Both the position numbers and the translations under genes were made by a program. The notes beneath the pieces were generated by a model, which saw only the letters and a list, made by a program, of their open reading frames with translations, made no database searches and was not told the DNA's origin. DNA of 64,000 nucleotides from an uncultured Myxococcales bacterium (GTDB taxonomy: Bacteria; Myxococcota_A; Bradymonadia; UBA4248), in NCBI GenBank assembly GCA_945875805.1, contig CAMCLY010000001.1:197-64196 (forward strand), given 5' to 3'. How positions within the stretch are numbered: position 1 is the stretch's first letter; each line of letters opens with the position of its first letter. Shown piece by piece: positions 4,514 through 50,845 of this stretch.

Positions 4514-4999
4514 ATGCAGGACAACAGTGTAAACAACGAGACCGCATCGCGGGTTGACGCGATTATCGAGCGGATTGGGCGTCATCCCGACATGCTCGTG
4601 CCCGTGCTTCAAGCGGCGCAAGAAGAGTTCAAGTATCTGCCTCAGGATGTGATGATGAGCATCGCGCAGGGGCTGAACATTCCGCCCGCCAAGGTGTACG
4701 GGGTGGCGACGTTTTATGCGCACTTTACGCTCGAACCCAAGGGGCGTCACATCATCCGCTGTTGTGACGGGACGGCGTGTCACGTGAAGGGATCGATGGC
4801 GATTATGGATGCCATCCGCTCGCATCTGAACCTGAAGGAAGGCCAGAAAACGACGGCGGACGGGAATTTTTCGCTCGAAATCGTGTCGTGCCTTGGGGCG
4901 TGTGGTCTTGCGCCGGTCATGGTGCTCGACGAAAAAGTGCATGGGCAGTCGAACTCGAAGGACGCCCTCGAAATCATCAAGAGCTGTGAGGAGAAGTAG
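4514..4999 (+). CDS. hydC: [FeFe]-hydrogenase NuoE-like [2Fe-2S] subunit (HydC/HndA type).
   Basis: The 161-aa ORF carries the thioredoxin-like [2Fe-2S] cysteines (CCDGTACHV ... CLGACGLAP) typical of NuoE/HydC. An RBS GGGAGAAG is upstream. It is the first gene of the hydCBA operon. Confidence 0.8.
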   Translation: MQDNSVNNETASRVDAIIERIGRHPDMLVPVLQAAQEEFKYLPQDVMMSIAQGLNIPPAKVYGVATFYAHFTLEPKGRHIIRCCDGTACHVKGSMAIMDAIRSHLNLKEGQKTTADGNFSLEIVSCLGACGLAPVMVLDEKVHGQSNSKDALEIIKSCEEK

Positions 5000-5002
5000 G
5001 CC

Positions 5003-6913: not shown

Positions 6914-6916
6914 GTC

Positions 6917-8662
6917 ATGGAAAATACGAAACCGACAATGATCATCGATGGCCGTAGCTATCCCATCAACGGCGAAAAGACGGTGATTCAACTCGCGCGC
7001 AACAACGGGATCGACATTCCGTCGTTGTGCTATCACCCGAGTCTTTCGACGTTCGGCGCCTGCCGTATGTGTCTCGTCGAATGCGAGGGCATCGGCATCA
7101 TTTCGAGTTGCACGCTCGCGCCGCGCGAGGGCATGGTCGTGAAGACTTCGACGGAAACGCTCCGTCACATGAAGAAAACGACGTTGCAGCTCCTTCTGGC
7201 CGACCACGACAACGAGTGCACCACGTGCCCCAAGAGCGGTCATTGCCGTCTGCAGGAACTCGCGCGCCGTTTTGCGGTCAACCGCAATCCGTTCCATCAG
7301 CTCAAGGAACGCCGTCCCCTCGACACGTCCTCCCCGTCGATCATTCGAGACAGCGGCAAATGCATTTTGTGCGGCAACTGCGTGCGCGCGTGCTCGGAAT
7401 TCCAGGGCATCGGCGTGCTTGGCTTTACGGGCCGTGGGCAGTCCTCGGAAGTCAAACCGGCCTTCGGGCTTCCGCTGGGCCAGACGGACTGCGTCAACTG
7501 CGGTCAGTGTGCCTCCGTCTGCCCCGTGGGCGCGATCGTCTCGCACTCCTATAACGACGAAATCTGGGCGGCCATCAACGATCCCGACACGACAGTCGTC
7601 GCGCAAATTGCCCCCGCCGTCCGCGTCGCCATCGGCGAGGAATTTGGCCTCAAACCCGGAACCAACGCCATGGGCAAGATGGTGGCGGCCATGAAGAAAA
7701 TCGGCTTTGACGCCGTCTATGACACGGCGTTTGCCGCCGATATCACGACGATCGAAGAAGCCACCGAAATCATCGGTCGCATCAAAAATGGCGGCAAACT
7801 CCCCGTCTTCACGTCGTGCTGCCCGGCATGGGTCAAATACGCCGAAGAATACGAACAGGACATGCTCGACAACCTTTCGAGCTGCAAGTCGCCTCAGGAA
7901 ATGGGCGCCGCCGTCCTGCGCAAAATTCTGCCCGAAACCACCTTCCCCGGTATCGAACAGAAGAATCTGGTCGTCATTTCGGTCATGCCGTGCACGGCCA
8001 AGAAGTTTGAGGTCAACCGCGAGGAGTTCAGCCACGACGGCGTCAAGGACATCAATTACTCCATGACGACGATCGAACTCGCCGCCCTCATCCGCGAAGC
8101 GGGAATCGAGGATTTCGACACGCTTGAGGATGCTCCGTGCGACAACCCCTTCGGGCTCGAAACGGGCTCCGGCGTCATCTTCGGCGCCACCGGTGGGGTC
8201 ACCGAAGCCGTCCTTCGTTATGCCGCCGAAAAACTCACCGGCAAAAAATCCGGCGACGTCAAATTCTATGACGTCCGCGGGGTCGAAGGGATTCGCGAGG
8301 CGTCGCTCACCGTCGCCGGGATTACCCTCAACCTTTGCCAGGTCCACAGTCTGGCCAATGCACGCAAGGTCTGCGAGGATATCCGGACGGGCAAAAAACA
8401 GTACCACGTCGTCGAAGTCATGGCCTGCCCCAACGGCTGCGTCAACGGTGGCGGGCAGCCCGCCACCCTCTACACCGACAAGGTCGTTCCCCTGCGCACC
8501 AAAGGCACGTATGCCCACGACGCCGAACTCGCCGTTCAGGCGCCTCAGGACAATAAGCCCTTGGCCGACATCTATGCCAAGTATCTGGGTGAGCCCAATA
8601 GCGAGGTGTGCCACCACTTGCTGCACACGCACTACACCAAACGTCCCAAATACACGAAGTAG
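6917..8662 (+). CDS. hydA: [FeFe]-hydrogenase catalytic subunit (H-cluster).
   Basis: The three H-cluster signatures are present: TSCCPAWVKYAE (L1), MPCTAKKFE (L2) and EVMACPNGCVNGGGQP (L3). An N-terminal 2Fe-2S plus 4Fe-4S ferredoxin-like domain precedes them. RBS GAAGGAG. Confidence 0.9.
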   Translation: MENTKPTMIIDGRSYPINGEKTVIQLARNNGIDIPSLCYHPSLSTFGACRMCLVECEGIGIISSCTLAPREGMVVKTSTETLRHMKKTTLQLLLADHDNECTTCPKSGHCRLQELARRFAVNRNPFHQLKERRPLDTSSPSIIRDSGKCILCGNCVRACSEFQGIGVLGFTGRGQSSEVKPAFGLPLGQTDCVNCGQCASVCPVGAIVSHSYNDEIWAAINDPDTTVVAQIAPAVRVAIGEEFGLKPGTNAMGKMVAAMKKIGFDAVYDTAFAADITTIEEATEIIGRIKNGGKLPVFTSCCPAWVKYAEEYEQDMLDNLSSCKSPQEMGAAVLRKILPETTFPGIEQKNLVVISVMPCTAKKFEVNREEFSHDGVKDINYSMTTIELAALIREAGIEDFDTLEDAPCDNPFGLETGSGVIFGATGGVTEAVLRYAAEKLTGKKSGDVKFYDVRGVEGIREASLTVAGITLNLCQVHSLANARKVCEDIRTGKKQYHVVEVMACPNGCVNGGGQPATLYTDKVVPLRTKGTYAHDAELAVQAPQDNKPLADIYAKYLGEPNSEVCHHLLHTHYTKRPKYTK

Positions 8663-8780: not shown

Positions 8781-11420
8781 TTAGTTGACCTGGTTGCCCT
8801 GCGATGCCGGGACGATGATCGACACCTGGCGGCGGCCAAAACTCAGCCCCGTCGTCGGGTTGACGACGTCGATATAGGCTGTAAAGACCTGGGCCTTGTC
8901 GGTCGCTTCGACGCAGGAATCGTTCTGCGCAATGACGGTAAACGTCAGCTGGGCACCGGTCTTGCCGACCGAGGACGTGCCGGGGGCAAAATTGCTGAAC
9001 CCGTTTTGATAGGTGGCTCCGCCCACCGACGTCGGCACGGCCACGGGGTTGCACGATTTTTCGGGTTCCTCCGGAGGCGCGATGTATTCGGTCGCCACCA
9101 CCTGCTTGATGAAGCATTCGGTGCCGTACGGTTTGCCCGGAATGGACTCGCCGGCAATTCGGGTCGATACTTCATACGTGCCGTATTTGACGAGGGCATC
9201 GACGCCCTGGGAAATATACGTCGACACGCTGTCGCCCGTGCCCTTGTAACGCAAAATGCACTGGTCGGGCTTGCCATTGAGGGTTTGACCGCTTTCGCTC
9301 AGCGCGCCGAGACAACATTTGTTTGCGCCGCACGCCCCGTTAAACGCACACGCCGGGACGATCGCATTCGACTCTTTGGCCCACGTCGTCATCTGACCCA
9401 TAGCGTCTGCGCTCCCCACATCGAGCGTGATCACGCGGATACCTTTGTTTTTGAGCTCAGGAAGCAACACGTTGGTGTAGTGGGGATTCGTGACATTGCT
9501 ATTGTATGCGTCATTGTTATAGTCGTGCGACGTGATATCGGTGGCATGCACGACGACGGGAAGGGTGCCCGTGCGGAAATCGACGCCGCCCCACGTGTTC
9601 GGCGTATTCGTGCGAGCCGGCACGCTGCCGCCGTTCCAAGAAACGCCTGCCCCCGTGGCGATTTGGTACAGCGATTCCGCTCCGCTTTCCGGACCGTCTC
9701 CACCGTTACGTGTGGTAAACCACGGGCTCTTTGTATACCCTTGGACAATGGCCGCATCCGTCGACACCGCTCCCAACAGACGGAATGGAAGATCTCCGGC
9801 ACTTGCGCTGCCATAGTTTGAGCTCCAATTTTTATTGACCGGGAAATCATCGAAATTCGTCAGCGCAAAGCCGCTATCGCTCACCATGCCGCGGACATTG
9901 TTGATGATGCCGGTGACATTATTTTTGACGTTATTAATGGTTCCTCCCATCGACCCCGTCGTGTCGACGTTGAACACAAGATCGAGTTTTGAAACCTGCG
10001 GTGTAAAGAGCAATAAGTCGTCTTTTTTGTCACCTCCAAACGGAAGTTCAAAATAAAATTCAAAAACATCCTGCACGCCCAGCGCCGGATCACACACAAG
10101 CGCCTGGGCATCGCTCACCGGCGATCCGTTGAGCAGACCGTGGTTCTTGGCGTATTCACCGGCGGCCAGTTCCGACGCATCGGGATAACCGTCGCCGTCG
10201 GTGTCGGGATTGGTGACGCCGGACACCCCGTTGCACGTGGGTTCGTGGGGATCGAGTACGCCGTCGGCGTCACAATCCGCATGCTGGAAACAATACCGTT
10301 TTGTCCCGCCGGGCATGGTGTACGTGAGGTCTTTCTCTTCCGCATCGGGGATCGTGTCGCCATCCGAATCGAGCGAGTATCGGTCATAATGCCCGTCTCC
10401 ATCCGAATCCGAATACCCTTCGAGGACATCGGGAATCGTGTCGCCGTCCGAATCCGTGGACATATAATCGGGAATGGTGTCGCCGTCCGTATCCCAAGGA
10501 TTTTCGGGGGTACCCGCCTCACACGGCACCCCATCGCACAAGCGCCCGGGCTGACCGTTTGACCCCATCAGACCGGCAATTTCCTCGACATCCGACATCA
10601 TGTCGCCGTCGTTGTCCTCCGAACGATAGTCGGGAATCGTGTCGCCATCCGTATCGACGGGATTTTCGGGATCCGGGCCCACTTCCACGCTGTCCGGAAT
10701 GCCGTTTCCGTCCGAGTCGAGACTCAGAAAATCGTACACGCCGTCGTCGTTTGAATCGATCGGCGCATTGTGCAAATCGCCGCCCGTCTGGCCTTCAATC
10801 GCATCCGGTATCGTGTCGCCGTCCGAGTCCAGATCCTCGCAATCCGGCGTTCCGTCCCCATCCGTGTCGACATCGCAACGATCATAATAGTCCGAAATCG
10901 TGTCGCCGTCCGTGTCACGGTCCGCCATGGCATTGGCAAAACACTTGCCTTCTTCGCAGACCCCCGATGCACAGCTCGCAAATTCGCCCGTACAATCGCC
11001 GCCCAACTCGACCTGCGTGATGCACTGCCCGGACTGGCACAACATCATGTTTCCACATTCCGACGTGCTCTTGCACGCATCCCCCGGAGCGCCTTCGCCC
11101 GTCCCCGTGGCCTGGCATTTTCCGTCCACACAAACGCCCGAACTGCACGGTTTTTCGGCGCTGCATGTCTCGACTTGCGCCGGAACGCACACCCCGGCCT
11201 CGCATTTTCCGGATGGGCATTCCGCATCTCGTTCGCAAGCCACCTCCGAGCCCCCATGCGCCTCGCATACGCCGTTCTTGCACACTTCGCCGTCCTTGCA
11301 GCCAGGCACACAAATCTTGTCATCCAATCCTTCCGGGCGAGGTATCGTGTCGCTCTCACATCCCAGAAATCCTACACTCGCCACTGCGGCTATCAACCAG
11401 GCATAATGTTTTCGTGTCAT
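8781..11420 (-). CDS. Large secreted lipoprotein with N-terminal Cys-rich CxxGxC repeats, about 10 thrombospondin-type-3-like Ca-binding repeats (DxDxDGxxDxxE) and a C-terminal VWA-like domain. It is a putative adhesin.
   Basis: The signal MTRKHYAWLIAAVASVGFLGC is a lipobox. The repeats DTDGDTIPD / DSDGDTIPD recur about 10 times. The VWA MIDAS-like motif LDLVFNVDTTGSMGG is present. The start was trimmed to 11420, where GGAGG lies upstream. Confidence 0.75.
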   Translation of the reverse strand: MTRKHYAWLIAAVASVGFLGCESDTIPRPEGLDDKICVPGCKDGEVCKNGVCEAHGGSEVACERDAECPSGKCEAGVCVPAQVETCSAEKPCSSGVCVDGKCQATGTGEGAPGDACKSTSECGNMMLCQSGQCITQVELGGDCTGEFASCASGVCEEGKCFANAMADRDTDGDTISDYYDRCDVDTDGDGTPDCEDLDSDGDTIPDAIEGQTGGDLHNAPIDSNDDGVYDFLSLDSDGNGIPDSVEVGPDPENPVDTDGDTIPDYRSEDNDGDMMSDVEEIAGLMGSNGQPGRLCDGVPCEAGTPENPWDTDGDTIPDYMSTDSDGDTIPDVLEGYSDSDGDGHYDRYSLDSDGDTIPDAEEKDLTYTMPGGTKRYCFQHADCDADGVLDPHEPTCNGVSGVTNPDTDGDGYPDASELAAGEYAKNHGLLNGSPVSDAQALVCDPALGVQDVFEFYFELPFGGDKKDDLLLFTPQVSKLDLVFNVDTTGSMGGTINNVKNNVTGIINNVRGMVSDSGFALTNFDDFPVNKNWSSNYGSASAGDLPFRLLGAVSTDAAIVQGYTKSPWFTTRNGGDGPESGAESLYQIATGAGVSWNGGSVPARTNTPNTWGGVDFRTGTLPVVVHATDITSHDYNNDAYNSNVTNPHYTNVLLPELKNKGIRVITLDVGSADAMGQMTTWAKESNAIVPACAFNGACGANKCCLGALSESGQTLNGKPDQCILRYKGTGDSVSTYISQGVDALVKYGTYEVSTRIAGESIPGKPYGTECFIKQVVATEYIAPPEEPEKSCNPVAVPTSVGGATYQNGFSNFAPGTSSVGKTGAQLTFTVIAQNDSCVEATDKAQVFTAYIDVVNPTTGLSFGRRQVSIIVPASQGNQVN

Positions 11421-11675: not shown

Positions 11676-11708
11676 GGCGGCTATCGGCGTGGCCGATACG
11701 CCGCCGGT
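11676..11708. repeat. REP-like GC hairpin (CGGCTATCGGCG-t-GGCCGATACGCCG) 3' of the korB-G fusion gene.
   Basis: The inverted repeat was read directly. Confidence 0.75.
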
Positions 11709-15053: not shown

Positions 15054-15128
15054 GCCGCGCGTATTGGCCCGTGGGGCCAATAGCGCGGCAGCGAGTCGTA
15101 TCGCGGGCGCACGGCGCCGCGATAGACG
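15054..15128. repeat. Tandem pair of REP-like hairpins (GCGCGTATTGGCC-cgtg-GGCCAATAGCGCGG and GTCGTATCGCGG-gcgcacggcg-CCGCGATAGAC).
   Basis: The inverted repeats were read directly. They lie between the convergently oriented 3' ends of two minus-strand genes. Confidence 0.75.
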
Positions 15129-16661: not shown

Positions 16662-16734
16662 AGCCAGTGCTCGGACTCGAACCGAGGACCTGCGCATTAC
16701 GAATGCGCCGCTCTACCAACTGAGCTACACTGGC
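16662..16734 (-). tRNA. tRNA-Thr (anticodon CGU), copy 1.
   Basis: The reverse complement GCCAGTGTAGCTCAGTTGGTAGAGCGGCGCATTCGTAATGCGCAGGTCCTCGGTTCGAGTCCGAGCACTGGCT folds as a cloverleaf with anticodon loop TTCGTAA. Confidence 0.85.
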
Positions 16735-16753: not shown

Positions 16754-16826
16754 AGCCAGTGCTCGGACTCGAACCGAGGACCTGCGCATTACGAATGCGC
16801 CGCTCTACCAACTGAGCTACACTGGC
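16754..16826 (-). tRNA. tRNA-Thr (anticodon CGU), copy 2. It is identical in sequence to copy 1.
   Basis: An identical 73-nt sequence lies 92 bp from copy 1. Confidence 0.85.
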
Positions 16827-20922: not shown

Positions 20923-21071
20923 CGGGTTTCTCCTTCGATAGGGGACGGCCAATGCCGCCGAGTTCTCATGTTGAGTAGCCTGAAAAAAAAAGGCGCGGCG
21001 TATCGAGGCCCATGGCCGAGATAGCCGCGCCCGCAAGCCCGTATCCGACAGGATAGGGCGCGTCCAAACCC

Positions 21072-21835: not shown

Positions 21836-22630
21836 TTAGGCAATCGCGCTGACGGGCTCCAGGGTGGCCACCATCGTTTCGGCCTGGTGAAGCATCGCGT
21901 CGTCGTCGACGTCCTGCCAACGCAAATCGCCAATATCCTGGACGGCCATCCGACCGGTCTGCATCAGCGTGGCTATCCCTTCAGACAGCGAGCAGTCGTC
22001 CGATGACGAAAGATTACGCGCCTGCTCAAGCGCCTGGAAAAGCGCCGGCGTGCAGATGAAAAGCCCCGTGTCCACCGCGTTAAATTCGCCGATGTTTTTG
22101 CCAATCGATGCCACTCGCCCATCCCTGACCAGCACCTTCGTCGCATCGTCCATGTCAAACACCTCGTCGAGCTTGTAATCCACACACAGCAACGCCCCGT
22201 CTTTGGGCGGAATCGTGCGCGCCGCACGTTCGAGCATCTCAGGGTCAAAAATGTGATCCGCCATCGTCAGGATAAAATTGCCGCGGACCGCAGAACGCGC
22301 ACACAACACGCTCAGACCGTTCGACTTGCGATATTCAGGGTTGAACACAAACGTTACACGCACGGGGATGTGACGGCAGTCCTCGCGGAGCGTCGACTCC
22401 AGAATCGGCGCGTGATAACCGGTCACCACGATGACCTCCTCAATCCCGCAATCCGCAAGATGCTGGATGTTGCGCTGGATAAGACTCATACCACCCACGA
22501 GCTTGAGGGGCTTGATGTCCTCGGATGTCTTTGCCAGCCTGCTGCCAAGACCCGCCGCAAGAATGACCGCCTGTTTCGGCGTGTCGTCGGCAAATGAAAG
22601 AAGACGGTTGGCTTTCGTGAGTTCTAACAT
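21836..22630 (-). CDS. Sugar-phosphate nucleotidyltransferase (NTP_transferase family), possibly CTP:inositol-1-phosphate or phosphocholine cytidylyltransferase.
   Basis: The N-terminal motif AVILAAGLGSRL is present in a 264-aa protein with GAGG RBS. It sits 480 bp from the MIPS gene on the same strand. Confidence 0.6.
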   Translation of the reverse strand: MLELTKANRLLSFADDTPKQAVILAAGLGSRLAKTSEDIKPLKLVGGMSLIQRNIQHLADCGIEEVIVVTGYHAPILESTLREDCRHIPVRVTFVFNPEYRKSNGLSVLCARSAVRGNFILTMADHIFDPEMLERAARTIPPKDGALLCVDYKLDEVFDMDDATKVLVRDGRVASIGKNIGEFNAVDTGLFICTPALFQALEQARNLSSSDDCSLSEGIATLMQTGRMAVQDIGDLRWQDVDDDAMLHQAETMVATLEPVSAIA

Positions 22631-22869
22631 GGAAATGCCTCATCCATTGCGAGCGCATTCGCGCCCTATCTATATCAAATTCTTAAATCCAGAAATTCTG
22701 CGACCAGAACCGCGGAGAACAACCCCCGCACGGAATGCGTCCGGCCCGGTCGGCCAGGCCCCTATGTCAATAATCGCGCCAGATCGCCTGTTGGGCAAAA
22801 TTTTTTTTAAACCTTCCACCACATCCTCACGAACCTTATGCTCAGTGGAAAGCCGCATTTCTTTGGGCT

Positions 22870-22990
22870 GGTGGGGGAAGTGTCCCCCCAACGCCGCTAT
22901 TTGCCTGCGGCAAATACGCGTCGCCCCCCTCGCCTCTCCCCCCGGCCCCCTCTCCAGCGGAGAGGGGGAGAAACGCGTCACCCGGGGGCT
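22870..22990. repeat. Composite intergenic repeat, copy A. It comprises the G5/C6 hairpin GGGGGAAGTGTCCCCCC, a REP hairpin GCTATTTGCC-tgc-GGCAAATACGC, a C-rich tract, and the hairpin CTCTCCagcGGAGAG.
   Basis: It is near-identical in layout to 55636-55745 (copy B). The distal hairpin has compensatory changes. Confidence 0.7.
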
Positions 22991-23037
22991 CGTCTCAAAA
23001 AGCCATCGAGCCATAAACCAAATCCCAGAGGGCGGAT

Positions 23038-23068
23038 ACAAAAAGGGCGACCCTTTGGGCCGCCCTTA
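23038..23068 (-). terminator. Rho-independent terminator of ino1.
   Basis: On the minus strand GGGCGGCCC-aaa-GGGTCGCCC is followed by UUUU, immediately after the stop at 23111. Confidence 0.45.
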
Positions 23069-23110
23069 AAAGTGTCACCTGCTTGCGCCGGTTTGAAAAA
23101 AAGTGGAGTA

Positions 23111-24430
23111 CTATTTATCCTCTTCGGCGTAGTAGTCCAGACCGAGGTGCGTGATCAGCTCTTCGCCCATGATGTAACGAAGCGTGTTCTTGTACTTCGT
23201 CTTCTGGATGAAGAGATCGTGCTCCGGATAAAGACCTTCGCGGCACTGCGGGCTCTTGAAGAAGAAGGACAGCCATTCCTGGATGCCATAAAAACCACAG
23301 CGTTGCGCCAGATCCATCGAAAGCGCAATGTCAAGCGCGACGGGAGCCGCAAGAATGGAGTCACGGCAGAGGAAGTTGATCTTGATCTGCATCGGATAGC
23401 CAAGCCAGCCAAAAATATCGATGTTGTCCCAGCCTTCTTTGGCATCACCGCGAGGCGGATAATACTCAATGCGGACTTTGTGATAGTACTTGCTGTAAAG
23501 ATCCGGGAAGGTCTTGCCGTCGAGAATGTGCTCGATAACCGAAAGTTTGGACACTTCCTTGGTCTTGAACGAACCCGGATCGTCGAGAACTTCGCCGTCG
23601 CGGTTGCCGAGAATGTTCGTCGAAAACCAGCCGTTGAGACCAAGACAACGGGCGCGAAGTCCAGGCGCGACGATCGTCTTCATCAGCGTCTGGCCCGTCT
23701 TGAAGTCTTTGCCCATGATGGCGACTTTTTCGCGTTTGGACAGCTCGACGATCGCGGGAATGTCCACCGTCAGGTTCGGGGCTCCGTTGGCATAAGGCAC
23801 ACCGCTCGAAATCGCCGCATACGCATAAATCATCGACGGAGAAATACGAGGATCGTTGTCCTTCATCGCTTTTTCAAGCGCCGCCACGCTCTGGTGGCAT
23901 TCCTCGCACGGCGTGTAGCATTCCGTCGAACCACACCAAAGCATCAACAGACGATCACAGCCATTGTCGGCTTTGAACTTCGCAATGTCGTCCTTCACCA
24001 TCTGGACGAGATCCCACTTCGTCGGCGCCGATTTCGCGTGCTTGACTTCGAGATTGTGGCAGTAGTTGTGATCAAATACCGCGTCCATCGGCTTGATCGC
24101 TTCCAACTGCGCACGGATCGGATCGAGATGCTTGTCTTCGAGAACGCCAGAGCGTTTGCATACTTCGTACGCATTCTCACCATGGATGTCCCACGCCCCA
24201 AAAACGATGTCCTTGAGCTCCGTAAGCGGGACAAAATCCTTGATAAGGGGATTGCGGTTTTCCGTCCGTTTGCCAAGGCGGATGCGTCCCATCTGTGTCA
24301 CGGAGCCAATCGGAAGCCCGTTGCCCGCCAACACGTCAAACACGCCGGCGATCATCGTCGTCGACACCGCACCAAGACCCGGAATGAGAATACCCAATTT
24401 GCCATTTGCTGGTTTGACTGTTACTGCCAT
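23111..24430 (-). CDS. ino1: myo-inositol-1-phosphate synthase.
   Basis: The 439-aa ORF has MIPS core motifs (GLGAVSTTMIAG NAD-binding, conserved ...SYNHLGNNDG-like and C-terminal regions) and the typical length. Confidence 0.85.
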   Translation of the reverse strand: MAVTVKPANGKLGILIPGLGAVSTTMIAGVFDVLAGNGLPIGSVTQMGRIRLGKRTENRNPLIKDFVPLTELKDIVFGAWDIHGENAYEVCKRSGVLEDKHLDPIRAQLEAIKPMDAVFDHNYCHNLEVKHAKSAPTKWDLVQMVKDDIAKFKADNGCDRLLMLWCGSTECYTPCEECHQSVAALEKAMKDNDPRISPSMIYAYAAISSGVPYANGAPNLTVDIPAIVELSKREKVAIMGKDFKTGQTLMKTIVAPGLRARCLGLNGWFSTNILGNRDGEVLDDPGSFKTKEVSKLSVIEHILDGKTFPDLYSKYYHKVRIEYYPPRGDAKEGWDNIDIFGWLGYPMQIKINFLCRDSILAAPVALDIALSMDLAQRCGFYGIQEWLSFFFKSPQCREGLYPEHDLFIQKTKYKNTLRYIMGEELITHLGLDYYAEEDK

Positions 24431-27029: not shown

Positions 27030-28229
27030 ATGTCCTCGGAGTCCGCGTTGAACAGTTCCCCAGTCCATGCGGAGGGCGATGCCCAAAATGCATCGGCCCC
27101 CACAAATTCAGGGCAATGCCCCATGGACGAAAACATCCCTGTGGATGATTCGATCAGTCCGTGGCCGTGCATCCAGATGGCACAATACCCCGTGGCAGAC
27201 GACTGGGACGACGCGTTCCCGCTCGAACGCCTCTCCGGGTTTCAGTACGACCATATCAAAAATGCCGTGCACGCCCTGTTTCTCTCGCCCGCACTCGCAA
27301 AAACGTACGCGCAGTTGCGCGACTTTGCGTTTCAGCAGGGCGCATTCTCTAACGCCAACCGAATCGATCTCGAGTTTTTTCACAACATCCTCACCCACGA
27401 CTACCCATTCATTACCGGCAACAAACAGATCGAAATTCGCGCCGCATTTCAGATCGATTCCAAAAAGGCCCGTGGCATGGGACACCTGCGCGCATCCCAT
27501 TTCGGTCTTTATCGCGTCGGCGTCAGCGGTATGGGGTTTGCCGAACTGCACAGCCTGCTCGACGACGGCATCTGGCGCGCTTTCTTCGGGTTGGGCGAAT
27601 GTCCAACCACCGGCAGCGTCGTGTTTTGCCGACTCATGCCCGTCGGATTCGTCCCCAGATCCCTGGCCTATTCTGTCGTCGAACCCTGGGAAACCGTCGT
27701 CCCCGATCACGTCGATCACGTCGTCGCCATGTTTCGCAGGCAGTTTGACCTCTTCCGGACGCGCTTCCCAAAGGCCACCGTCAAGGCGTTTCTCAAGGCT
27801 TCCGCCTATCCCCTCTACGAATACATCGAGTCCTGTGAATTGCGCGCCGTCCTACAGAAACAGCTCGACACGGTAGACGACGAGTTGCACGCCACCACCA
27901 CCACGCTCATTTTTCCCGACGTCTCGCAAATGCCCAAAATCGACGCCCTCCCTCTCGCCTCTCCTGTCAAAGACCTCCAAGGCGTCGTGCAGAACCTCGC
28001 CACCGCCCCCATTTTCCAAGACGATGCACTTCCGGAAACCCTGCGCGAAGCCATCCTCTCCCGCGAAAAACGCGCCCTCGAAATCACGACGTTTGCTCGA
28101 CAAGCCGGAGCCAAATATGTCGAAGAATGCATTCAATCATTGCCAAAACGCACAAAGATTATTCAAAAAATTCGCATCCTCGACGAAAATGAGATGTATC
28201 GTGCCCTTCGACACTTGTTCTTGAGATGA
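27030..28229 (+). CDS. Hypothetical 399-aa protein that starts 6 nt after the enolase stop.
   Basis: It shows GC3-biased codon usage. No recognisable motif was found. It ends at its own terminator. Confidence 0.5.
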   Translation: MSSESALNSSPVHAEGDAQNASAPTNSGQCPMDENIPVDDSISPWPCIQMAQYPVADDWDDAFPLERLSGFQYDHIKNAVHALFLSPALAKTYAQLRDFAFQQGAFSNANRIDLEFFHNILTHDYPFITGNKQIEIRAAFQIDSKKARGMGHLRASHFGLYRVGVSGMGFAELHSLLDDGIWRAFFGLGECPTTGSVVFCRLMPVGFVPRSLAYSVVEPWETVVPDHVDHVVAMFRRQFDLFRTRFPKATVKAFLKASAYPLYEYIESCELRAVLQKQLDTVDDELHATTTTLIFPDVSQMPKIDALPLASPVKDLQGVVQNLATAPIFQDDALPETLREAILSREKRALEITTFARQAGAKYVEECIQSLPKRTKIIQKIRILDENEMYRALRHLFLR

Positions 28230-28281
28230 GGCCGCGCCACGCGATTTTCTTGTCACTGCGCGGCAAGGGTGGTAGGAGAAA

Positions 28282-28305
28282 GCGCCCGTTGTCGGGCGTT
28301 TTTTT
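28282..28305 (+). terminator. Rho-independent terminator (gcgcccg-ttgt-cgggcgc followed by T7).
   Basis: The hairpin plus T-run lie 50 nt after the stop at 28229. Confidence 0.55.
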
Positions 28306-28335
28306 GAACTCTAAGCTGTTTGTAGGAGAAGCAAA

Positions 28336-28518
28336 ATGGCAAAACCCGTAGTAGATACAAGCGTTTGTGTGGGATGTGGTTCGTGTGAAGCGGGATGTCC
28401 CGCCGAAGCCATCAAAGTCAGCGATGACGGCGTGGCCGTGATCGATGCCGACGCCTGCGTCGAATGCCTCGCATGCATCGACAACTGTCCCGCCGGCGCC
28501 ATCTCTGAAGGCGAATAG
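28336..28518 (+). CDS. Small 2x[4Fe-4S] ferredoxin.
   Basis: The 60-aa ORF has two CxxCxxCxxxCP motifs (CVGCGSCEAGCP, CVECLACIDNCP). RBS AGGAGAAG. Confidence 0.8.
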   Translation: MAKPVVDTSVCVGCGSCEAGCPAEAIKVSDDGVAVIDADACVECLACIDNCPAGAISEGE

Positions 28519-28532
28519 TTTTTTTTGTGGGG

Positions 28533-28609
28533 GGACGATGTCCCCCCACCCCCCCCCGAAATGCGAAAGCGCCCACGCGGCTTTGCCGCGCGGGCGCTTT
28601 CGCATTTCA
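28533..28609. repeat. Two strong hairpins 3' of the ferredoxin gene. The first is the G6/C6 hairpin GGGGGGACGATGTCCCCCC. The second is a 22-bp-stem palindrome GAAATGCGAAAGCGCCC(A/G)CGCGGC-aaag-GCCGCGCGGGCGCTTTCGCATTTC.
   Basis: Read directly. They probably act as terminators or RNA-stability elements. Confidence 0.5.
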
Positions 28610-28964
28610 TGAGGGGAGCAAGGTCTGAGGAATATTGGGGCTCTTGGTGATCGAACTCGCTTTTTGGGGCCGTATGACGAAGGAAATCAAGGGATCCTTG
28701 AATTTTCACACGTTCCACGGAAATGGAAAGCCTGAAAAAAACGGTTTTTGAAAATCTTTGTATTTATGAGAAGTGTAGAATAGAATGAGAAAATAACATT
28801 CTATCGATCGGATGATGTTTGTATAGGATTTTTAGAATCCTAAGTGATTGAAATTTGGAGGTTTTTTCTCCAATTTATCTTGCCATCTGCTATACTTGAT
28901 TGGGTGTTGCGCACATCTGGTGCGCATGGGATGACTTGCGTCGTCGATAAACGGAGACATCGAT

Positions 28965-31088
28965 ATGAAACAAAACAAACTTTTTATATGGGCATGGTTG
29001 CTCACGTGCGTCCTCTGGACGGGATGCGACGATTCGGTAACGGTCCGTGTGTCGTGTGAGGAGCAAAACGCAACGCTGTGTGTGAATAATAAAGTATATA
29101 TATGTATAGATCATACATGGCAGAATCCTCAAGATTGTGTGGCAGGGTGTGATGATGCAAAAAAGACATGTTTAGAAAAGTGCAAAGAAAGTCAAGAACG
29201 ATGCAGTGATGATAAAAATAATATAGAAGTTTGTCAATCCGATGGAACGTGGCAGTCACATCCGTGTGGTGAAGGGCAGAAATGCGATATTGAAAATGTG
29301 AGATGTGAGCCTGAATCGGATGATGTTGAATGTACAGAAGAAAATTATCAATGTACAGGAACAATACTACAGGTTTGCAAGTCTGGAAATTGGGAGACCA
29401 GTAAAGAGTGCAACGAAGGAGAAATATGTGATGAGGATTCGCAGTCTTGCATGAAAAAACCTGTAGAAAATAAATGCAGTGAAGAAGGAAAGATTCAATG
29501 TAGAAACGAAGGCGATTCGCATTATATGATGTGTAAGGGTGGAATATGGACTTTAGAAGAATGTCCAGAAGATGAGGCTTGTTTTGGTGATGATTGTCGT
29601 AAGAAGTGTGAACATGATGAAATAAATTCAGTGTGTCAAGGCGTAGATAAAATTGAAGTGTGTCATCAAGAGGGCTATTGGGACGAATTGCAGAAATGTG
29701 AAGCGGAAAAACAATGTATTGAAAATGATGTGGATGGAAAAAAAGTTGCGCGTTGTGTAGAAAAATGTGATCCTAACAAGGTTTTTCTTCAGTGTGCAAA
29801 AAATATATCAATAGGGGGTGAAAATATTGAGATGTTAGAGGTATGTTATAATGATAGGTTGCATTTGTTCGGTGAGAAATGTATGTATGGCTGTGATGAT
29901 GAGAAAATGAAATGTCGAGAATGTAAGCAAGGTGGCGGTTGCTTTATTTACGACACATTATCCATGTCTAAAGAAAAGGGCTACTATGCTTTTTGTAAGG
30001 ACGGTTATTGGTCGTATAGCGTGTGTGATCAAGATGGAGTGAGTTGTGATGAATACAAAAATGAATGTACTTGTGTGAGTGGGCAAAAAATATGTGCAGT
30101 GGATAAAAATGGTACAGATGTTATGTTGATGTGTGAAAATGAAAGATGGCGTTCGGTCTATTGTCCACAAAGTGAAAAGGGCGATGGATGTGATGGGGGT
30201 AGGAATAAGTGTGTGTCAATAGGAGATACGGCTGTATGGGGAGAATGTTCGCTTGATGATGTATATGGATATTATGGTAAAGATAATAAAAATTATTATA
30301 AAAAATGTAATACTCAAGGGATGTGGAAAGAAATAGAAACTTGCGAGGGTGATAATTGTGATAAAGTGACTTATAATGAATGTGTTTCAGGAAATTCATA
30401 TTGCGCAAAAGATGGTACTATTTTATCTTGTAATGGCGGTAAATTGCAAGTGGATGAAAAATGTGAAGCTTGTAGTGAGTATAATGATAATGACAAGGTA
30501 AAGGCTAAATGTGAAGGATGTAAAAACGGTGTATTTGGATGTGAAGATAATAAACTGTCTAGATGTGAGCATGGTGATTGGGTTGAGATGGATGAGTGTG
30601 AGGATGACTTGGTTTGTAATAGTGAAATAGGTGTTTGTCACAAGATGATTGAACGCAACTCTTGTGCGGCTAATGGGGGAATTGCGTATGCGCTCCTTTT
30701 GGATAAAAATTCTGATCAAAAACAAATAATCCAGTGTGAAAATAAATGTTATGTGTATGATGATAATCAATCGGCGGTGGCATGTGATAAGGATTCTCTT
30801 GGGAATTATGCTTCTCTGGATGGAGACGGTGTGTGGCGGGTTAAACATCCATATGCAATAGAAATAACATGTCCTAACGAAGTTATCACCACGGATTGGT
30901 ATAGATGTTCTCTTTTTAATGAAAACTTTAAATGTATAGAAGGTCGTTATCAATGTGGTCAGAATAATAGTGTAGAATTGTGTGTTGGGGAATCTTGGAG
31001 ATCCGAATATCAAAATGTCGGAACCTGTCCTAAAGGAACAAGGTGCGATGATTCTGGCAACTTCGTCCGATGTGTGCCAAATGACTAA
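28965..31088 (+). CDS. Cys-rich repeat lipoprotein (Myxococcus-type cysteine-rich repeats). The gene body is strongly A+T-rich.
   Basis: The lipobox is MKQNKLFIWAWLLTCVLWTGC. The 707-aa protein has about 90 Cys in recurring C..G.C...C motifs. The nucleotide composition switches from GC-normal (the first roughly 120 nt) to A+T-rich for about 1.9 kb. Confidence 0.7.
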   Translation: MKQNKLFIWAWLLTCVLWTGCDDSVTVRVSCEEQNATLCVNNKVYICIDHTWQNPQDCVAGCDDAKKTCLEKCKESQERCSDDKNNIEVCQSDGTWQSHPCGEGQKCDIENVRCEPESDDVECTEENYQCTGTILQVCKSGNWETSKECNEGEICDEDSQSCMKKPVENKCSEEGKIQCRNEGDSHYMMCKGGIWTLEECPEDEACFGDDCRKKCEHDEINSVCQGVDKIEVCHQEGYWDELQKCEAEKQCIENDVDGKKVARCVEKCDPNKVFLQCAKNISIGGENIEMLEVCYNDRLHLFGEKCMYGCDDEKMKCRECKQGGGCFIYDTLSMSKEKGYYAFCKDGYWSYSVCDQDGVSCDEYKNECTCVSGQKICAVDKNGTDVMLMCENERWRSVYCPQSEKGDGCDGGRNKCVSIGDTAVWGECSLDDVYGYYGKDNKNYYKKCNTQGMWKEIETCEGDNCDKVTYNECVSGNSYCAKDGTILSCNGGKLQVDEKCEACSEYNDNDKVKAKCEGCKNGVFGCEDNKLSRCEHGDWVEMDECEDDLVCNSEIGVCHKMIERNSCAANGGIAYALLLDKNSDQKQIIQCENKCYVYDDNQSAVACDKDSLGNYASLDGDGVWRVKHPYAIEITCPNEVITTDWYRCSLFNENFKCIEGRYQCGQNNSVELCVGESWRSEYQNVGTCPKGTRCDDSGNFVRCVPND

Positions 31089-31298
31089 TGCGTTGTGTCA
31101 AAAGGTTTGGCGACACATTGCGTCATGTGACTGGGAGAAAGCATCAGCGAGTGTGTTTGCGTTCAGATGGGTGGGGGCGTGGAGATACATTTTATGATAT
31201 TTGCAACATTTGGGAGGGGTCGCTATAGTGAAAGGAGTTTTTTACGGGCGCCTGTATGGGGCTCGTGATCGTCATGTATTTTGATATATGGAGGAATT

Positions 31299-33629
31299 AT
31301 GCGTTCTTATAAGATGGCTTTTGTATTGGCGTGCATGGGTCTTGCGGGACTGGCGGGGTGCAGTGAGGACTCGGTGGGTCTTGTCCTCAAGTGTACGCCG
31401 GGTGTGACGAAGTGTGAGAATAACACGCTTTCGATTTGTCTGGCGACGGCGTGGCAGGACATGGCCTGTCCTGCGGGGTGTAATGCGGCCGGTACGGATT
31501 GCGCCATTCCCGAGGGGGTCGAATGCGTGGTGACGCAGTGCAAGGATGATTCGACGCTTGCGGTCTGTACGGATGGCAAACTTTCGTTGCAGAAGTGTCC
31601 CAATGGGTGTCAGGGGTTTGCCTGTACCGAAGCGCCAGTGACCGAGTGTGAGGCGGGGGCCAAGAAATGCAGTGAGGACGGCAAGGGCGTGGCCGTGTGC
31701 GGCGTGGACGGCAAGTGGGGGAGTGTCACGGCATGTGAGGGCGATCTCGTGTGCGATCCTGTCACGGCGGAGTGCAAAGGTGGCGAGGTGACGCCGGAGT
31801 GTGAGGCGGGGGCCAAGAAATGCAGTGAGGACGGCAAGGGCGTGGCAGTGTGCGGCGAGGATGGTGCGTGGGGTGACGCTGTGGCGTGTGAGGGCGATCT
31901 CGTGTGCGATCCGCTGAGCAAGGAATGCAAAGACGCCGGTTCGGTGGCCGAATGTGCGCCTGGGGCCAAACAATGTGCCGTCGAGAGCAATGGCGTCGTC
32001 GTCTGTGGCGAGGACGGCAAGTGGGGGAGTGTCACGGCGTGTGAGGGGGATCTCGTGTGCGATCCTGCCACGGCGGAGTGCAAGAATGGCGAGGTGACGC
32101 CGGAGTGTGAGGCGGGAGCCAAGAAGTGCAGCGATGACGGCAAAGCCTCCATTGTCTGTGGTGAAGACGGCGTGTGGGGTGAACCCTCCACCTGCGATAT
32201 TGGCATGGCATGCGATGCCGCATCGGGGGAATGCAAGGCGGTGGTCGAACCACTCTGTGCCAAAGGCGAACTCAAGTGCAGCGATGATCACCAGAACCTC
32301 CTCGTCTGCAATGAAGCGGGCGACGGATGGGCGGAAGAGAAGAAGTGCGATAGAGATCAAAAGTGTCTTGTTGTGGAAGGCGTTGCGCAGTGTGTCAAGG
32401 CCGACTGTGTGCCTGGCCAGACGCAGTGTGCGGACGACATCTATCTCCAGACATGTGATGCAAACGGCAAATGGGCCAAGTCCCTGTGTCCGGACACGGC
32501 GGGCAAATGTGCCGTTATCGATGACGTGGCACAATGCGTCCAGTGCGCGCCGGGCTCGCAGCAGTGTGTCGATGATTCCAACATCAAATATTGTGGCGAC
32601 GACGGCAAATGGAGTGAGATCGAAGCATGCCCGTCGAATGGCCGGTGCGACACCAAGAAGAATGTGTGTACCTGCAATAACGGTGGCTACAACTGCACGG
32701 CATCGGGCGACTTCCAGGTTTGTGAGAACAGGGTGTACAAGACGGTAGAGCAGTGCGGCAGCAAGGAGGCATGCAGTACTTCCATAGACGCGGGTAAGAA
32801 TGTCTATCCCGGTTGTGTCTGTACGCCGAAGATTGGGGACAAGGCGGCCGAAACGCGATGTAACGAAGACAAATCCGGCATTCAGATATGCGAGCTCAGA
32901 ACGCTGAGTTATTATAACCAGTATACGCGCTGGGTTGACGGCGAATCCTGTGACGGTGGCGCCTGCATGATGGGCGAGGACAAGGTTGCGTATTGTTCGT
33001 GCAGTGACAATGATGTGCGTTGTCAGGCGCAGGATAAGGGCACGTCTCTTGAGTATTGTTATCTTGGAAAATGGCTTGAGGTCACGACGTGCAAAAGGGA
33101 GGCGGACTTTACCAATTCCTGCAATGCCGAGATCGGTGCATGTGTGAGCCAGTGCAAGATTATATCGTCCTCTTTGATACCTGGAGCTAGCACACCCGAG
33201 AGGACGTGCTCAGGCAATACGCTCATGACGTGTGAAAACGGCATCTTTGTGGCGCAGGAATGTGAGAACGGGTGTACTTTGTTGGGTTTAGGTTTGAGTG
33301 CGCAATGTAGAGACGAAGAAGTGACGTGTTCGGCTATCAATATCGGCAAAGGGCTGTGTCATGAAGACGGCAAAGGGTACAGTTTGTGCCAGAGCGCTCA
33401 TAGCGGTGAGATGACCGATATCGAATGCAAGGACAACGAAGTCTGTGTGAACGCTTCTCCACGGCCGGAAGTCGCCTGCGAGGCAAAAATGTGCGAAGAG
33501 GGCGCCTATTCGTGCACCGATGATGGAAAATCCGTGCGTCAGTGTGTCAATAATGCCTACAGTTTTGTGGGCACCTGCCCTGACAAGACGACGTGCGAAA
33601 AAGGCAAGTGCGTCCTTGCGATCAAATAA
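31299..33629 (+). CDS. Cys-rich repeat lipoprotein. It is a GC-normal paralog of the preceding gene.
   Basis: The lipobox is MRSYKMAFVLACMGLAGLAGC and GGAGG lies upstream. It has the same N-terminal architecture as the 28965 gene. It contains 4 x 51-aa internal repeats. Confidence 0.7.
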   Translation: MRSYKMAFVLACMGLAGLAGCSEDSVGLVLKCTPGVTKCENNTLSICLATAWQDMACPAGCNAAGTDCAIPEGVECVVTQCKDDSTLAVCTDGKLSLQKCPNGCQGFACTEAPVTECEAGAKKCSEDGKGVAVCGVDGKWGSVTACEGDLVCDPVTAECKGGEVTPECEAGAKKCSEDGKGVAVCGEDGAWGDAVACEGDLVCDPLSKECKDAGSVAECAPGAKQCAVESNGVVVCGEDGKWGSVTACEGDLVCDPATAECKNGEVTPECEAGAKKCSDDGKASIVCGEDGVWGEPSTCDIGMACDAASGECKAVVEPLCAKGELKCSDDHQNLLVCNEAGDGWAEEKKCDRDQKCLVVEGVAQCVKADCVPGQTQCADDIYLQTCDANGKWAKSLCPDTAGKCAVIDDVAQCVQCAPGSQQCVDDSNIKYCGDDGKWSEIEACPSNGRCDTKKNVCTCNNGGYNCTASGDFQVCENRVYKTVEQCGSKEACSTSIDAGKNVYPGCVCTPKIGDKAAETRCNEDKSGIQICELRTLSYYNQYTRWVDGESCDGGACMMGEDKVAYCSCSDNDVRCQAQDKGTSLEYCYLGKWLEVTTCKREADFTNSCNAEIGACVSQCKIISSSLIPGASTPERTCSGNTLMTCENGIFVAQECENGCTLLGLGLSAQCRDEEVTCSAINIGKGLCHEDGKGYSLCQSAHSGEMTDIECKDNEVCVNASPRPEVACEAKMCEEGAYSCTDDGKSVRQCVNNAYSFVGTCPDKTTCEKGKCVLAIK
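31644..32255 (+). repeat. A 4 x 153-bp in-frame tandem repeat (ECEAGAKKCSEDGKGVAVCGxDGKWGSVTACEGDLVCDP.TAECK.GEVTP) inside the Cys-rich lipoprotein gene.
   Basis: Unit starts at 31644, 31797, 31950 and 32103 were read directly. Copies 1/2 and 3/4 are nearly identical at the nucleotide level. Confidence 0.85.
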
Positions 33630-33750: not shown

Positions 33751-33846
33751 GCGGTCTATGCTTTGGCATACGCCCGCGCATTTTTCTGTGTGTCGGCATC
33801 ACCAGAGGGATTGGGCGAGCGTATCGGCCGCGCCGATAGCTCGCCC
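33751..33846. repeat. Two REP-like hairpins (GTCTATGC-tttg-GCATACGC and GCGAGCGTATCGGCC-gcg-CCGATAGCTCGC) upstream of dnaK.
   Basis: The inverted repeats were read directly. Confidence 0.7.
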
Positions 33847-37227: not shown

Positions 37228-37962
37228 ATGGCAAAAGCGGCACAGGCAGGAGAGGAGAAAAATAAGCGCGCGCGTCGAGCCCCCAAAAAACAGGACGTAG
37301 AAACTCAGGACGTGGTGGAGAAAACGGTGACGACGGAATCGTCGAACGTGACAGAAGCGTCGAACGTGACAGAAGCGTCGAACGTGACGGAATCGTCGAA
37401 CGTGACAGAAGCGTCGAACGTGACGGAGGGGGCCTCGTTGGTTTCGGATGGGATTGCGCGCTATGATGTCATGATCACGAGCGAGCGCGCGGGATACAGG
37501 CCGCCCAAGGCGGCCGTGATGGCGATGGTCCAGCAGCTGGCGTTTCGCGGGCTCGCGTCTCCTGTTGAGGAAGCCATTGCCGAGACATGGGCCGAGATTT
37601 ATTTTTCGCCCGGGGTTTCGTCGCACGAAATTTTTATAGAGAAGGCGTATACGAGTGAAGCGCCCGTGTATCATGAAGCGGTGATGAAGTTTGCCGAGAA
37701 GCCGTTTTTTTGTGAGTATTCAGAAACGCCTCATCGTCCGCTGTACTGGTGTATCGAATTTCGCGGTTCCCGATTTGCGCAACCGCTGGGTTCGTTTAGG
37801 AAGCTTTTTATGGATGCGCTCAATCTCCGCGTGTCGGTGAGCGTGCGCGATGCGGCGCCGATACCGCCGCACAGGGTTGTGCCCGAAGACGAGCTTCCCG
37901 TCGAGAAGAAAAAGCATGAACGCGGCGCCGGTCTTGCCGGTTGTGAAGTTCAGGAAGTATAA
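37228..37962 (+). CDS. Hypothetical protein with a basic N-terminus and a 5 x (E[AS]SNVT) tandem repeat.
   Basis: The start was chosen at MAKAAQAG, after AGGAGACTAGAGAA. The C-terminal 150 aa show no recognised motif. Confidence 0.5.
   Translation: MAKAAQAGEEKNKRARRAPKKQDVETQDVVEKTVTTESSNVTEASNVTEASNVTESSNVTEASNVTEGASLVSDGIARYDVMITSERAGYRPPKAAVMAMVQQLAFRGLASPVEEAIAETWAEIYFSPGVSSHEIFIEKAYTSEAPVYHEAVMKFAEKPFFCEYSETPHRPLYWCIEFRGSRFAQPLGSFRKLFMDALNLRVSVSVRDAAPIPPHRVVPEDELPVEKKKHERGAGLAGCEVQEV
37336..37425 (+). repeat. A 5 x 18-bp in-frame tandem repeat (gaa[gt]cgtcgaacgtgac[ag]).
   Basis: Read directly. Confidence 0.85.
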
Positions 37963-39412: not shown

Positions 39413-39630
39413 GGGATTGTCGAGGTGAAAAGAAGGTGAGTGAATCCGCATGGGGTAGGCGGTATGAGCGATGTGAGGGGGTAGGCGCGTATCGCGCGGT
39501 GGTCTAAAAAACGGCGATGCGGTCTATTATGTGGCGTCCGATTATGGCGCCTTGTTTCATGCACCGCGCGATAGCGACGTAGGGGGAGGCTTCCCCCCCC
39601 CCAAAAAAAACACCACAGGATTGGAAGGGG

Positions 39631-50843: not shown

Positions 50844-50845
50844 TA

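Follow-up and report, generated by a model that had tools for sequence, protein, structure and literature searches.

A candidate REP/BIME-like family of mosaic hairpin repeats in an uncultured Myxococcales bacterium

What kind of element is a structured intergenic sequence of some 120 bp that occurs twice in 64 kb of bacterial DNA? The question is raised by a 64,000-nucleotide stretch, here called the window, of contig CAMCLY010000001.1 from an uncultured Myxococcales bacterium (assembly GCA_945875805.1). An earlier note on the window had described two copies of this composite, A and B, as a mobile element resembling a miniature inverted-repeat transposable element (MITE) or as a small structured RNA. 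Our analysis suggests, with a probability of about 60%, that both copies are members of a dispersed, non-coding mosaic DNA repeat family similar to the repetitive extragenic palindromes (REPs) and bacterial interspersed mosaic elements (BIMEs). This reading fits best because of the distribution of the copies, their lack of polarity, their turnover, their modular order and their nesting. The hairpin-repeat family is previously undescribed, and literature searches with exact sequences and on REPs in Myxococcota gave nothing relevant. It appears to be confined to a clade of uncultured gut-associated bacteria, whose metagenome-assembled genomes (MAGs) are labelled Myxococcota, Myxococcales or Proteobacteria.

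Hairpin repeats in a fixed order

Both copies exist as the earlier note had described them, with their parts in the same order: a G5 hairpin, a GCTAT...ATACGC hairpin, the block GCCCCCCTC (22923-22931 in A and 55691-55699 in B), a C-rich tract and a distal hairpin (Table 1). They share the exact 23-mer TGGGGGAAGTGTCCCCCCAACGC (22872-22894 and 55638-55660), which was found in 0 of 100 dinucleotide-preserving shuffles, and stretches of 161 nt around them align with a mean column identity of 79% over 167 alignment columns. The predicted folds are stable (z = -2.3 to -2.9). As had been proposed, the inner stem of the REP-type hairpin is perfect in A and decayed in B, where it has two mismatches, and the distal hairpins of both copies fold.

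We scanned a genome collection of 596 Gb with the 17-mer GGGGGAAGNGTCCCCCC, which returned at least 104 loci, most of them unrelated (by our own estimate, about 277 chance matches were to be expected). Among the matches listed, the full composite recurs in MAGs labelled Myxococcota, Myxococcales and "Proteobacteria RGIG," from ruminant and other guts; this first scan and the window together gave at least 24 copies. A metagenome scan with a window-specific 22-mer returned 17 loci, 14 of them from one pig-gut sample, and in all there are at least 39 distinct composite copies. The repeat is the only DNA that the pig-gut contigs share with the window (78-97% identity), and other contigs of the same sample carry the ino1 protein of the window unchanged. 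The window's ino1 and TPR proteins also occur unchanged in 80 and 187 metagenome-index blocks, respectively, mostly from pig and other gut samples, and in MAG GCA_051887695.1. Homologues of the nucleotidyltransferase encoded beside copy A are labelled Bradymonadales (one), Myxococcota bacterium or Proteobacteria bacterium. On these grounds we place the host among the uncultured gut-associated bacteria of this clade.

The 39 copies follow one order, in which a leader, the GGGGGAAGNGTCCCCCC hairpin, a collared hairpin of REP type and a terminal CCCCCCTC block succeed each other. A REP is thus joined in fixed order with short conserved motifs, as in a BIME, and four copies have an optional third module. 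The leader, which the earlier note had missed, is 50-69% T at positions -18 to -7 and G-rich at -6 to -1. The G5 hairpin is identical in 29 of the 39 copies, and the remaining ones either deviate at the loop N alone or are of the CCT/CCCCCT subtype. The collared hairpin has the consensus (A)RCGCGK-CTAT-palindrome-ATACG-MCGCK, with a foot (CGCGK / MCGCK), a collar (CTAT / ATA-C-G) with a bulged C, and an apex formed by a hypervariable palindrome of 3-78 nt. The terminal CCCCCCTC is often followed by TGC and a C-rich tail. There are two subtypes, between which both C-runs change together: GTCCCCCC goes with CCCCCCTC, and CTCCCCCT goes with ACCCCCTC, the latter pair being found in copy D (see below) and in loci L060, L139 and L143. 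How differently the parts evolve is seen in the orthologous pair L136/L148 (best blastn alignment, 80.5% identity over 3,378 nt), where the frame, that is, the G5 hairpin, the collar and the C6TC block, is shared at 100% identity and one apex has given way to another (TACCTCCGGTA versus TATTGCATA).

Relaxed searches raised the number of composites in the window to four. The additional copies, C and D, both rearranged and on the minus strand, had been missed by the earlier note. Copy C holds an insertion of about 110 nt with two collared hairpins in the opposite orientation (4266-4287 and 4299-4322). Copy D consists of a T8 run, a G10AAGCCTCCCCCT hairpin, GCTAT-CGCGCGGTG, a 60-nt insert, CACCGCGCG-ATACGC and GCCT-ACCCCCTC. 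The pattern GCTAT-N8-26-ATACGC alone has 16 matches in the window, compared with 0.15 expected, so that this short imperfect extragenic palindrome is, like a REP, highly repeated. Twelve of the 16 are free-standing hairpins, likewise missed before, and 40 more collared hairpins were counted in 140 kb of related loci; all lie in spacers. The window doublets (4266/4299, 48492/48528, 56448/56486 and 60025/60061) are all in direct orientation. The outer stems of the free-standing hairpins are variable yet complementary.

In several cases a T-run stands beside a lone collared hairpin, always on the ATACGC side. Five such free-standing hairpins score as strong terminators, so that the collar is present in 5 of about 15 strong terminator-like sites of the window (about a third). 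Judged by its sequence, a lone collared hairpin with a T-run is a predicted bona fide intrinsic terminator, and collared hairpins would supply a sizeable share of the terminators in this uncultured gut lineage. The composite itself was rejected as an intrinsic terminator because its T-rich tract stands on the wrong side, ahead of the hairpins, which are followed by CCCCCCTC; the proper arrangement is limited to free-standing collared hairpins. A -1 frameshift signal (T-run, spacer, hairpin) was also ruled out, as copies stand after stop codons and in both orientations. Long spurious open reading frames (ORFs) cross these repeats in six-frame ORF listings.

Covariation, genomic context and turnover

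Pairing was assessed on 89 distinct hairpins, each trimmed to one common register that kept 5 nt of outer flank, the collar and the core's first and last 4 nt, with a placeholder for the loop. In this set, 90.9% of the cells pair, compared with 67.4% in shuffles, and the covariation score is 0.519 versus 0.138, a value reached in 0 of 500 shuffles; all slid registers collapse. The inner stem had served as a selection criterion for the set and the outer stem had not, and in this unselected stem GC, CG and AU alternate with few mismatches. The collar is constant by the design of the search, and its excess over chance rests on the count of 16 versus 0.15 given above. Counted over related copies, these figures show that pairing is maintained and are no count of independent events.

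Covarying stems had been claimed from copies A and B, with the caveat that more copies might remove the signal. The REP-type hairpin keeps it across all 89 hairpins and keeps it strongly. The distal hairpin, which had been the example, fares less well: A and B do differ in both arms, and the evidence consists of four low-complexity sequences. Unusually stable tails (z < -2) were found in 6 of 38 copies, and those of the CCCCCTCTCC/GGAGAGGGGG type in only four (A, B, L140 and L057). The distal hairpin is therefore a third, optional module, and it was ruled out as a core module of the family.

The composite shows no preference for a genomic context. Among the 29 copies with genes called on both sides, 12 spacers are tandem-opposite, 8 tandem-same, 5 convergent and 4 divergent, a mix no different from the background (P = 0.24), and no strand preference was detected (P = 0.50). 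A depletion from divergent promoter regions, seen at first (1 of 20 copies), was gone with 4 of 29 (P = 0.24).

Orthologous spacers point to turnover. The ino1-nucleotidyltransferase gene pair that flanks copy A is syntenic in relatives across the clade (L115 to L120). Its spacer lacks the element in L115, L116 and L117 (nucleotidyltransferases 72%, 77% and 68% identical to that of the window), and in L119 (61% identical) it holds an element that is inverted and carries a different long palindrome. The rex-nuoE spacer of L115 lacks copy C. In these close relatives, the orthologous spacers are too diverged to define the ends of the element. Among strains of the species, copy A hardly varies, and copy B differs in the length of its T-run and G-run, at one base of the loop and by the loss of 12 nt from the C-rich tract. 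Two independent metagenome contigs of the species (L113 and L114) end inside copy A (window positions 22870-22990), illustrating how such repeats break metagenome assemblies. The dispersed, structured intergenic element that the earlier note had suspected is thus borne out by at least 39 copies, by presence and absence at orthologous spacers and by contigs that break inside it; the note had named the finding of two copies only, with no flanking duplications and no transcript, as grounds to abandon it, and there are many copies and no flanking duplications.

The last point bears on whether the composite is a classical MITE, i.e., a deleted insertion sequence (IS) derivative moved in trans by a DDE transposase. 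Its size of about 60-130 nt, intergenic position, copy number and patchy presence would fit. However, the longest word shared between the two flanks of a copy averaged 5.21 nt, compared with 4.98 ± 0.14 nt for mismatched flanks, and such words had no consistent position, so that no target-site duplication was found. Nor are there terminal inverted repeats (only the G-run and the C-run are complementary, and the ends are otherwise unrelated); neither the window nor the loci contain a related IS or transposase, and the interior is made of hairpin modules, unlike IS ends. We consider a MITE very unlikely, and the MITE-like proposal of the earlier note fell on the same three grounds, namely, duplications, terminal repeats and, in the window, a transposase.

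The other proposal, an RNA, would make the composite a small or cis-regulatory structured RNA: either a bistable switch, with the G5 run pairing to one or the other C-run, or a small RNA with C-rich anti-Shine-Dalgarno tracts. The stable predicted folds, the two C-runs of covarying length (CCCCCC/CCCCCC versus CCCCCT/CCCCCT subtypes) and the C-rich single-stranded tracts are consistent with this, as is the hairpin with a downstream T-run at the end of L140 (2 nt after) and of B (about 17 nt after). Yet the copies have no strand or context preference, standing in either orientation and in all spacer types; there is no conserved promoter, the terminator is absent from most copies, and the apex (3-78 nt) accepts nested insertions. 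Rfam scans of the window and of 18 loci at gathering thresholds found nothing apart from tRNAs, and at E ≤ 1 copies A and B gave nothing meaningful, only noise. A small-RNA or riboswitch-like function is quite unlikely, given the neutral orientation and the variable apex.

A third possibility is that the composite does not move and is a structural signal selected by the host, whose frame and collar are recognized by a host protein (for example, a nucleoid protein or one active in termination or processing). Each copy would in that case be a functional site kept up on its own, for instance as a barrier at transcript ends or an insulator separating genes. Three observations favor this: collared hairpins with a T-run make up their share of the strong terminators with fixed polarity, the frame is invariant across genera while the adjacent spacer DNA is unalignable, and the covarying stems show that pairing is under selection. 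In the composite, on the other hand, no T-run follows the hairpins, and its orientation is neutral to genes; close relatives lack it in orthologous spacers, and another has it inverted; and an identical 17-mer, collar and C6TC block at dozens of sites is implausible without copying. We regard a host signal as doubtful overall, and its claim on the composite persists because the frame is so well conserved.

Possible routes of spread and the RAYT-REP system of related genomes

As a REP/BIME-like mosaic, the composite would propagate and turn over at the DNA level, possibly through a structure-specific single-strand enzyme of the HUH/Y1 type or through recombination between copies, and not by cut-and-paste transposition. 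The apex of the collared hairpin would be a mutational or insertional hotspot into which other palindromes may land, including the GTAG-type REPs that flank a REP-associated tyrosine transposase (RAYT)-like gene of related genomes. The effect on the host would probably be REP-like as well, with very stable intergenic hairpins, in the transcript or the DNA, acting as 3'-end barriers or insulators.

In three related MAGs or contigs (L121, L122 and L123), the RAYT-like gene is located in type I restriction-modification operons, with hsdM on one side and hsdS on the other. It scores 22-32 bits with Pfam Y1_Tnp and 32-34 bits with NCBIfam REP_Tyr_transpos, below the cutoff of the latter, and the composite is present as well in at least two of the MAGs with this gene (JAZRVP and JAZUKH). 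In L122, tandem arrays of GTAGAGGCG...CGTCTCTAC palindromes border the gene on either side (2800-3000 and 3700-3880). A Y1_Tnp/REP_Tyr_transpos-like gene amid GTAG-type palindromes indicates that the clade runs a classical RAYT-REP system. Palindromes of the form GTAGAGACG...CGTCTCTAC are also found at the apex of the collared hairpin in L051, L057, L096 and L123, between complementary arms, and nesting occurs in the window, too, where copy C encloses two inverted collared hairpins. Incoming palindromes seem to prefer the hairpin tip as a landing site, yielding Russian-doll palindromes.

The L122 gene was rejected as the owner of the collared hairpin, as the REP that flanks it differs and its tie to the G5 hairpin, collar and C6TC block consists of nesting only. 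The GTAG-type REP (GTAGAGRCG...CGYCTCTAC) is absent from the window, Pfam found no RAYT or transposase in 40 window ORFs, and there is no other Y1 gene in the 1.19 Mb of fetched loci. A tblastn search with IS200 and RayT queries gave one weak match, in L096, which led to the RAYT-like gene described above.

The invariant frame could instead be a structure-specific recombination or landing site, comparable to attC outside integrons, at which a single-strand-specific enzyme or repeated template switching would keep rewriting the apex. This would explain why the foot and collar are identical across genera around a core of 3-78 nt, why the core is replaced at orthologous sites and why RAYT-borne REPs accumulate exactly there. 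We hold it to be unlikely. If the frame is the landing site of an enzyme, it would represent a new structure-specific DNA recognition system; if it is not, the family would be a clean new REP/BIME-like example outside Proteobacteria, where REP and BIME elements were defined. With its frozen frame, fast apex, heavy compensatory change and nested RAYT-linked palindrome, it offers a natural experiment for studying how palindromic repeats are recognized, copied and extended.

Several points weigh against the REP/BIME-like assignment. No mobilizing enzyme was found for the composite, and no transposase in the window; the sole Y1-type gene in the fetched DNA belongs with a different REP. No pair of empty and filled sites is close enough to fix the exact ends, so that mobility is deduced from how the copies are distributed. 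The frame is conserved across genomes whose nucleotidyltransferase proteins are only 61-77% identical, and copies within one genome are 80-97% alike, which could mean selection for a host function and not selfish spread. Finally, a REP/BIME-like model does not account for the T-rich leader.

Parts of the frame extend beyond the clade. Among the matches listed in the 17-mer scan, to which all counts outside the clade refer, 22 of 81 outside-clade matches have GGGGGAAGNGTCCCCCC followed by C5-6TC 2-43 nt downstream (60-nt limit), compared with 3 that have it upstream. In Acidobacteria this short form lies between the variable C-terminus typical of a diversity-generating retroelement (DGR) (…GGSWN…GFRCAGELR*) and an avd-like four-helix-bundle gene, and in Micrarchaeota it lies in a dispersed repeat of about 100 nt beside tRNA fragments and a duplicated pth 5' end. 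No DGR or reverse transcriptase genes were evident near the motifs in archaeal and other loci. The G5AAGNGTC6...C6TC frame in other phyla could serve retroelements or mobile elements widely as a recognition motif, or be a low-complexity coincidence.

One more possible origin for the composite is as a retro-mobilized, SINE-like (short interspersed element) or DGR-related element. Read on the opposite strand, it ends in a variable A-run and starts with GAGGGGGG and a GC hairpin, as found beside the Acidobacteria DGR variable region, where the loci combine a variable-region-type C-terminus, GAGGGGGG-T-CCA-GGGGGGACACTTCCCCC and an avd-like gene; the T-run (the A-run of the other strand) also varies in length between copies and strains. 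Against this, there are no flanking duplications, none of the copies was found to have a reverse transcriptase nearby, interruptions are frequent in the T-rich leader, which forms no clean tail, and there is no adenine-specific variation. The likeness to the DGR hairpin, moreover, follows in part from searching with that 17-mer. Such an origin is highly improbable.

The genes around copies A and B are those named by the earlier note insofar as Pfam supports the nucleotidyltransferase, ino1 and TPR assignments; the lipoprotein label of the gene upstream of B is unsupported. In the gene pair at 21836-24430, the partner of ino1 is an inositol-phosphate-cytidylyltransferase-like nucleotidyltransferase, and CDP-alcohol phosphatidyltransferase genes occur near the pair in L117 to L120, which suggests synthesis of an inositol phospholipid or solute. 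The rex-nuoE spacer that holds copy C is a place in which one might look for a Rex operator; the Rex-like redox regulator lies upstream of an operon with nuoE/nuoF-like and [FeFe]-hydrogenase genes (3499-8662).

The window has other repeats and compositional features. Two tandem tRNA genes (16662-16734 and 16754-16826, minus strand) have identical scores, are 92 nt apart and lie in 88-nt repeat units that are 94% identical. At 28000-32000 the GC content falls to 0.44-0.47, compared with about 0.57 elsewhere, with a strong positive GC skew, and the gene beside this stretch (31281-33629) contains three 153-nt tandem repeats (31638-32182). Three tandem 15-nt units of TTGAAATACNCYGGC (48219-48272), in the spacer downstream of an alpha-amylase/CBM20 gene (48585-51515, minus strand), resemble an array of protein-binding sites. 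In-frame tandem or interspersed repeats within predicted genes have units of 18 nt (37314-37445), 30 nt (41005-41124), 21 nt (61241-61345) and about 39 nt (10240-10920), the last in an 898-aa VWA-like protein and, by eye, corresponding to thrombospondin-type GDTIPD motifs.

Table 1. Copies of the composite, their parts, lone collared hairpins and neighboring genes in the window, and loci with the short form
Feature	Window position or locus	Strand	Context or basis
Copy A, whole	22857-22968	+	between nucleotidyltransferase gene and ino1
Copy A, leader, T-rich then G-rich (atttctttgggctggt)	22857-22872	+	sequence; composition over 39 copies
Copy A, invariant G5 hairpin GGGGGAAGTGTCCCCCC, stem GGGGGA/TCCCCC, loop AGTG	22873-22889	+	identical in 29/39 copies
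Copy A, collared hairpin AACGCC-GCTAT-TTGCC-TGC-GGCAA-ATACGC-GTCG, bulged C in 3' collar	22890-22923	+	fold; covariation (89 hairpins)
Copy A, terminal CCCCCCTC block	22924-22931	+	motif match
Copy A, optional third module: C-rich tract and hairpin CCCCCTCTCC-agc-GGAGAGGGGG (22946-22968)	22932-22968	+	fold; tail z = -2.5
Copy B, whole	55620-55743	+	upstream of TPR gene
Copy B, T-run (55620-55626) and G-rich leader	55620-55638	+	sequence
Copy B, G5 hairpin GGGGGAAGTGTCCCCCC	55639-55655	+	sequence
Copy B, collared hairpin AACGCG-GCTAT-TTCGGC-TTC-GCCTCA-ATACGC-CGCG, inner stem partly decayed	55656-55691	+	fold
Copy B, terminal CCCCCCTC block	55692-55699	+	motif match
Copy B, optional third module: C-rich tract and hairpin CCGGCCCCTCCCC-tgca-GGGAGGGGGGGCCGG (55709-55742)	55700-55743	+	fold; tail z = -4.0
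Copy C, rearranged	4238-4385	-	between rex and nuoE-like gene
Copy C, G5 hairpin GGGGGAAGGGTCCCCCC, left collar remnant after it	4369-4385	-	motif match
Copy C, right half ATACGC-CGA-GCCCCCCTC	4238-4255	-	motif match
Copy D, subtype 2	39475-39610	-	between FHA-domain gene and 185-aa ORF
Free-standing collared hairpin with T8 (intrinsic-terminator form)	15059-15084	-	motif match
Free-standing collared hairpins	11680-11701, 46913-46936, 60025-60048, 60061-60084	+	motif match
Free-standing collared hairpins	20998-21025, 33819-33840, 48492-48515, 48528-48553, 56448-56473, 56486-56509, 61161-61185	-	motif match
Nucleotidyltransferase gene	21836-22630	-	Pfam; one side of copy A
ino1	23111-24430	-	Pfam; other side of copy A
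TPR gene	55783-56439	+	Pfam; downstream of copy B
Uncharacterized ORF upstream of B	55023-55592	+	189 aa (call based on GC at third codon positions); 170-aa gene as called in public contigs
Short form, Acidobacteria	L005, L034, L038, L042		scan matches
Short form, Micrarchaeota and other DPANN	L025, L035, L059, L063, L069, L082, L092		scan matches
Short form, further loci	L040, L044, L011, L016, L097, L098, L100, L056, L024		scan matches

Comparison with known systems

The MITEs Correia, RUP and Nezha are, like the composite, small, non-coding, dispersed and intergenic, and by analogy the composite may also be able to affect the transcription of its neighbors; unlike them, it has no terminal inverted repeats, target-site duplication or parent IS. 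With the DGR target-site hairpin, a GC-rich element and cruciform downstream of the variable region, it shares a G-run followed by a G6/C6 hairpin, and the same 17-mer occurs in the composite and in the Acidobacterial DGR-type loci. The window copies, however, are not beside variable-region genes, avd or a reverse transcriptase, and they carry the collared hairpin between the two blocks.

Integron attC sites are likewise hairpins whose foot sequences are conserved, with an extrahelical base and a terminal structure that varies between 3 nt and long branched inserts; by this comparison, recognition would have to be by structure and not by sequence. In contrast to attC, the copies form no cassette arrays, stand in both orientations beside housekeeping genes and have no R/L box consensus, and no integrase was found near the window copies, unlike attC arrays beside intI. 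As a dispersed element in both orientations with no integrase, the composite was rejected as an attC site.

The REPIN-RAYT systems, built on inverted REP doublets that flank the domesticated Y1/HUH transposase mobilizing them, are matched in related MAGs by the Y1_Tnp/REP_Tyr_transpos-like gene amid arrays of GTAG-type palindromes, which differs in having its own REP sequence and a place inside a type I restriction-modification operon. The collared hairpin departs from REPs in that its foot, CGCGK-CTAT / ATACG-MCGCK, has no GTAG or other 5' tetranucleotide, and the window doublets are direct and not inverted as in REP/REPIN doublets. Also unlike REP and BIME elements, the frame is conserved across genera with a hypervariable apex (3-78 nt), the invariant G5 hairpin and the C6TC block flank the collared hairpin, and no cognate RAYT was found in the window or the 1.19 Mb of fetched loci. 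In BIMEs, host proteins (IHF, gyrase and Pol I) bind the mosaic. The likeness to the REP and BIME elements of Enterobacteria and Pseudomonas is nevertheless broad: in both, short GC-rich imperfect palindromes with a conserved asymmetry (here, the bulged C) are strictly extragenic, are present in many copies, often as tandem doublets, without target duplication, and form mosaics with other short motifs, and some copies serve, here by prediction, as terminators or transcript-end barriers.

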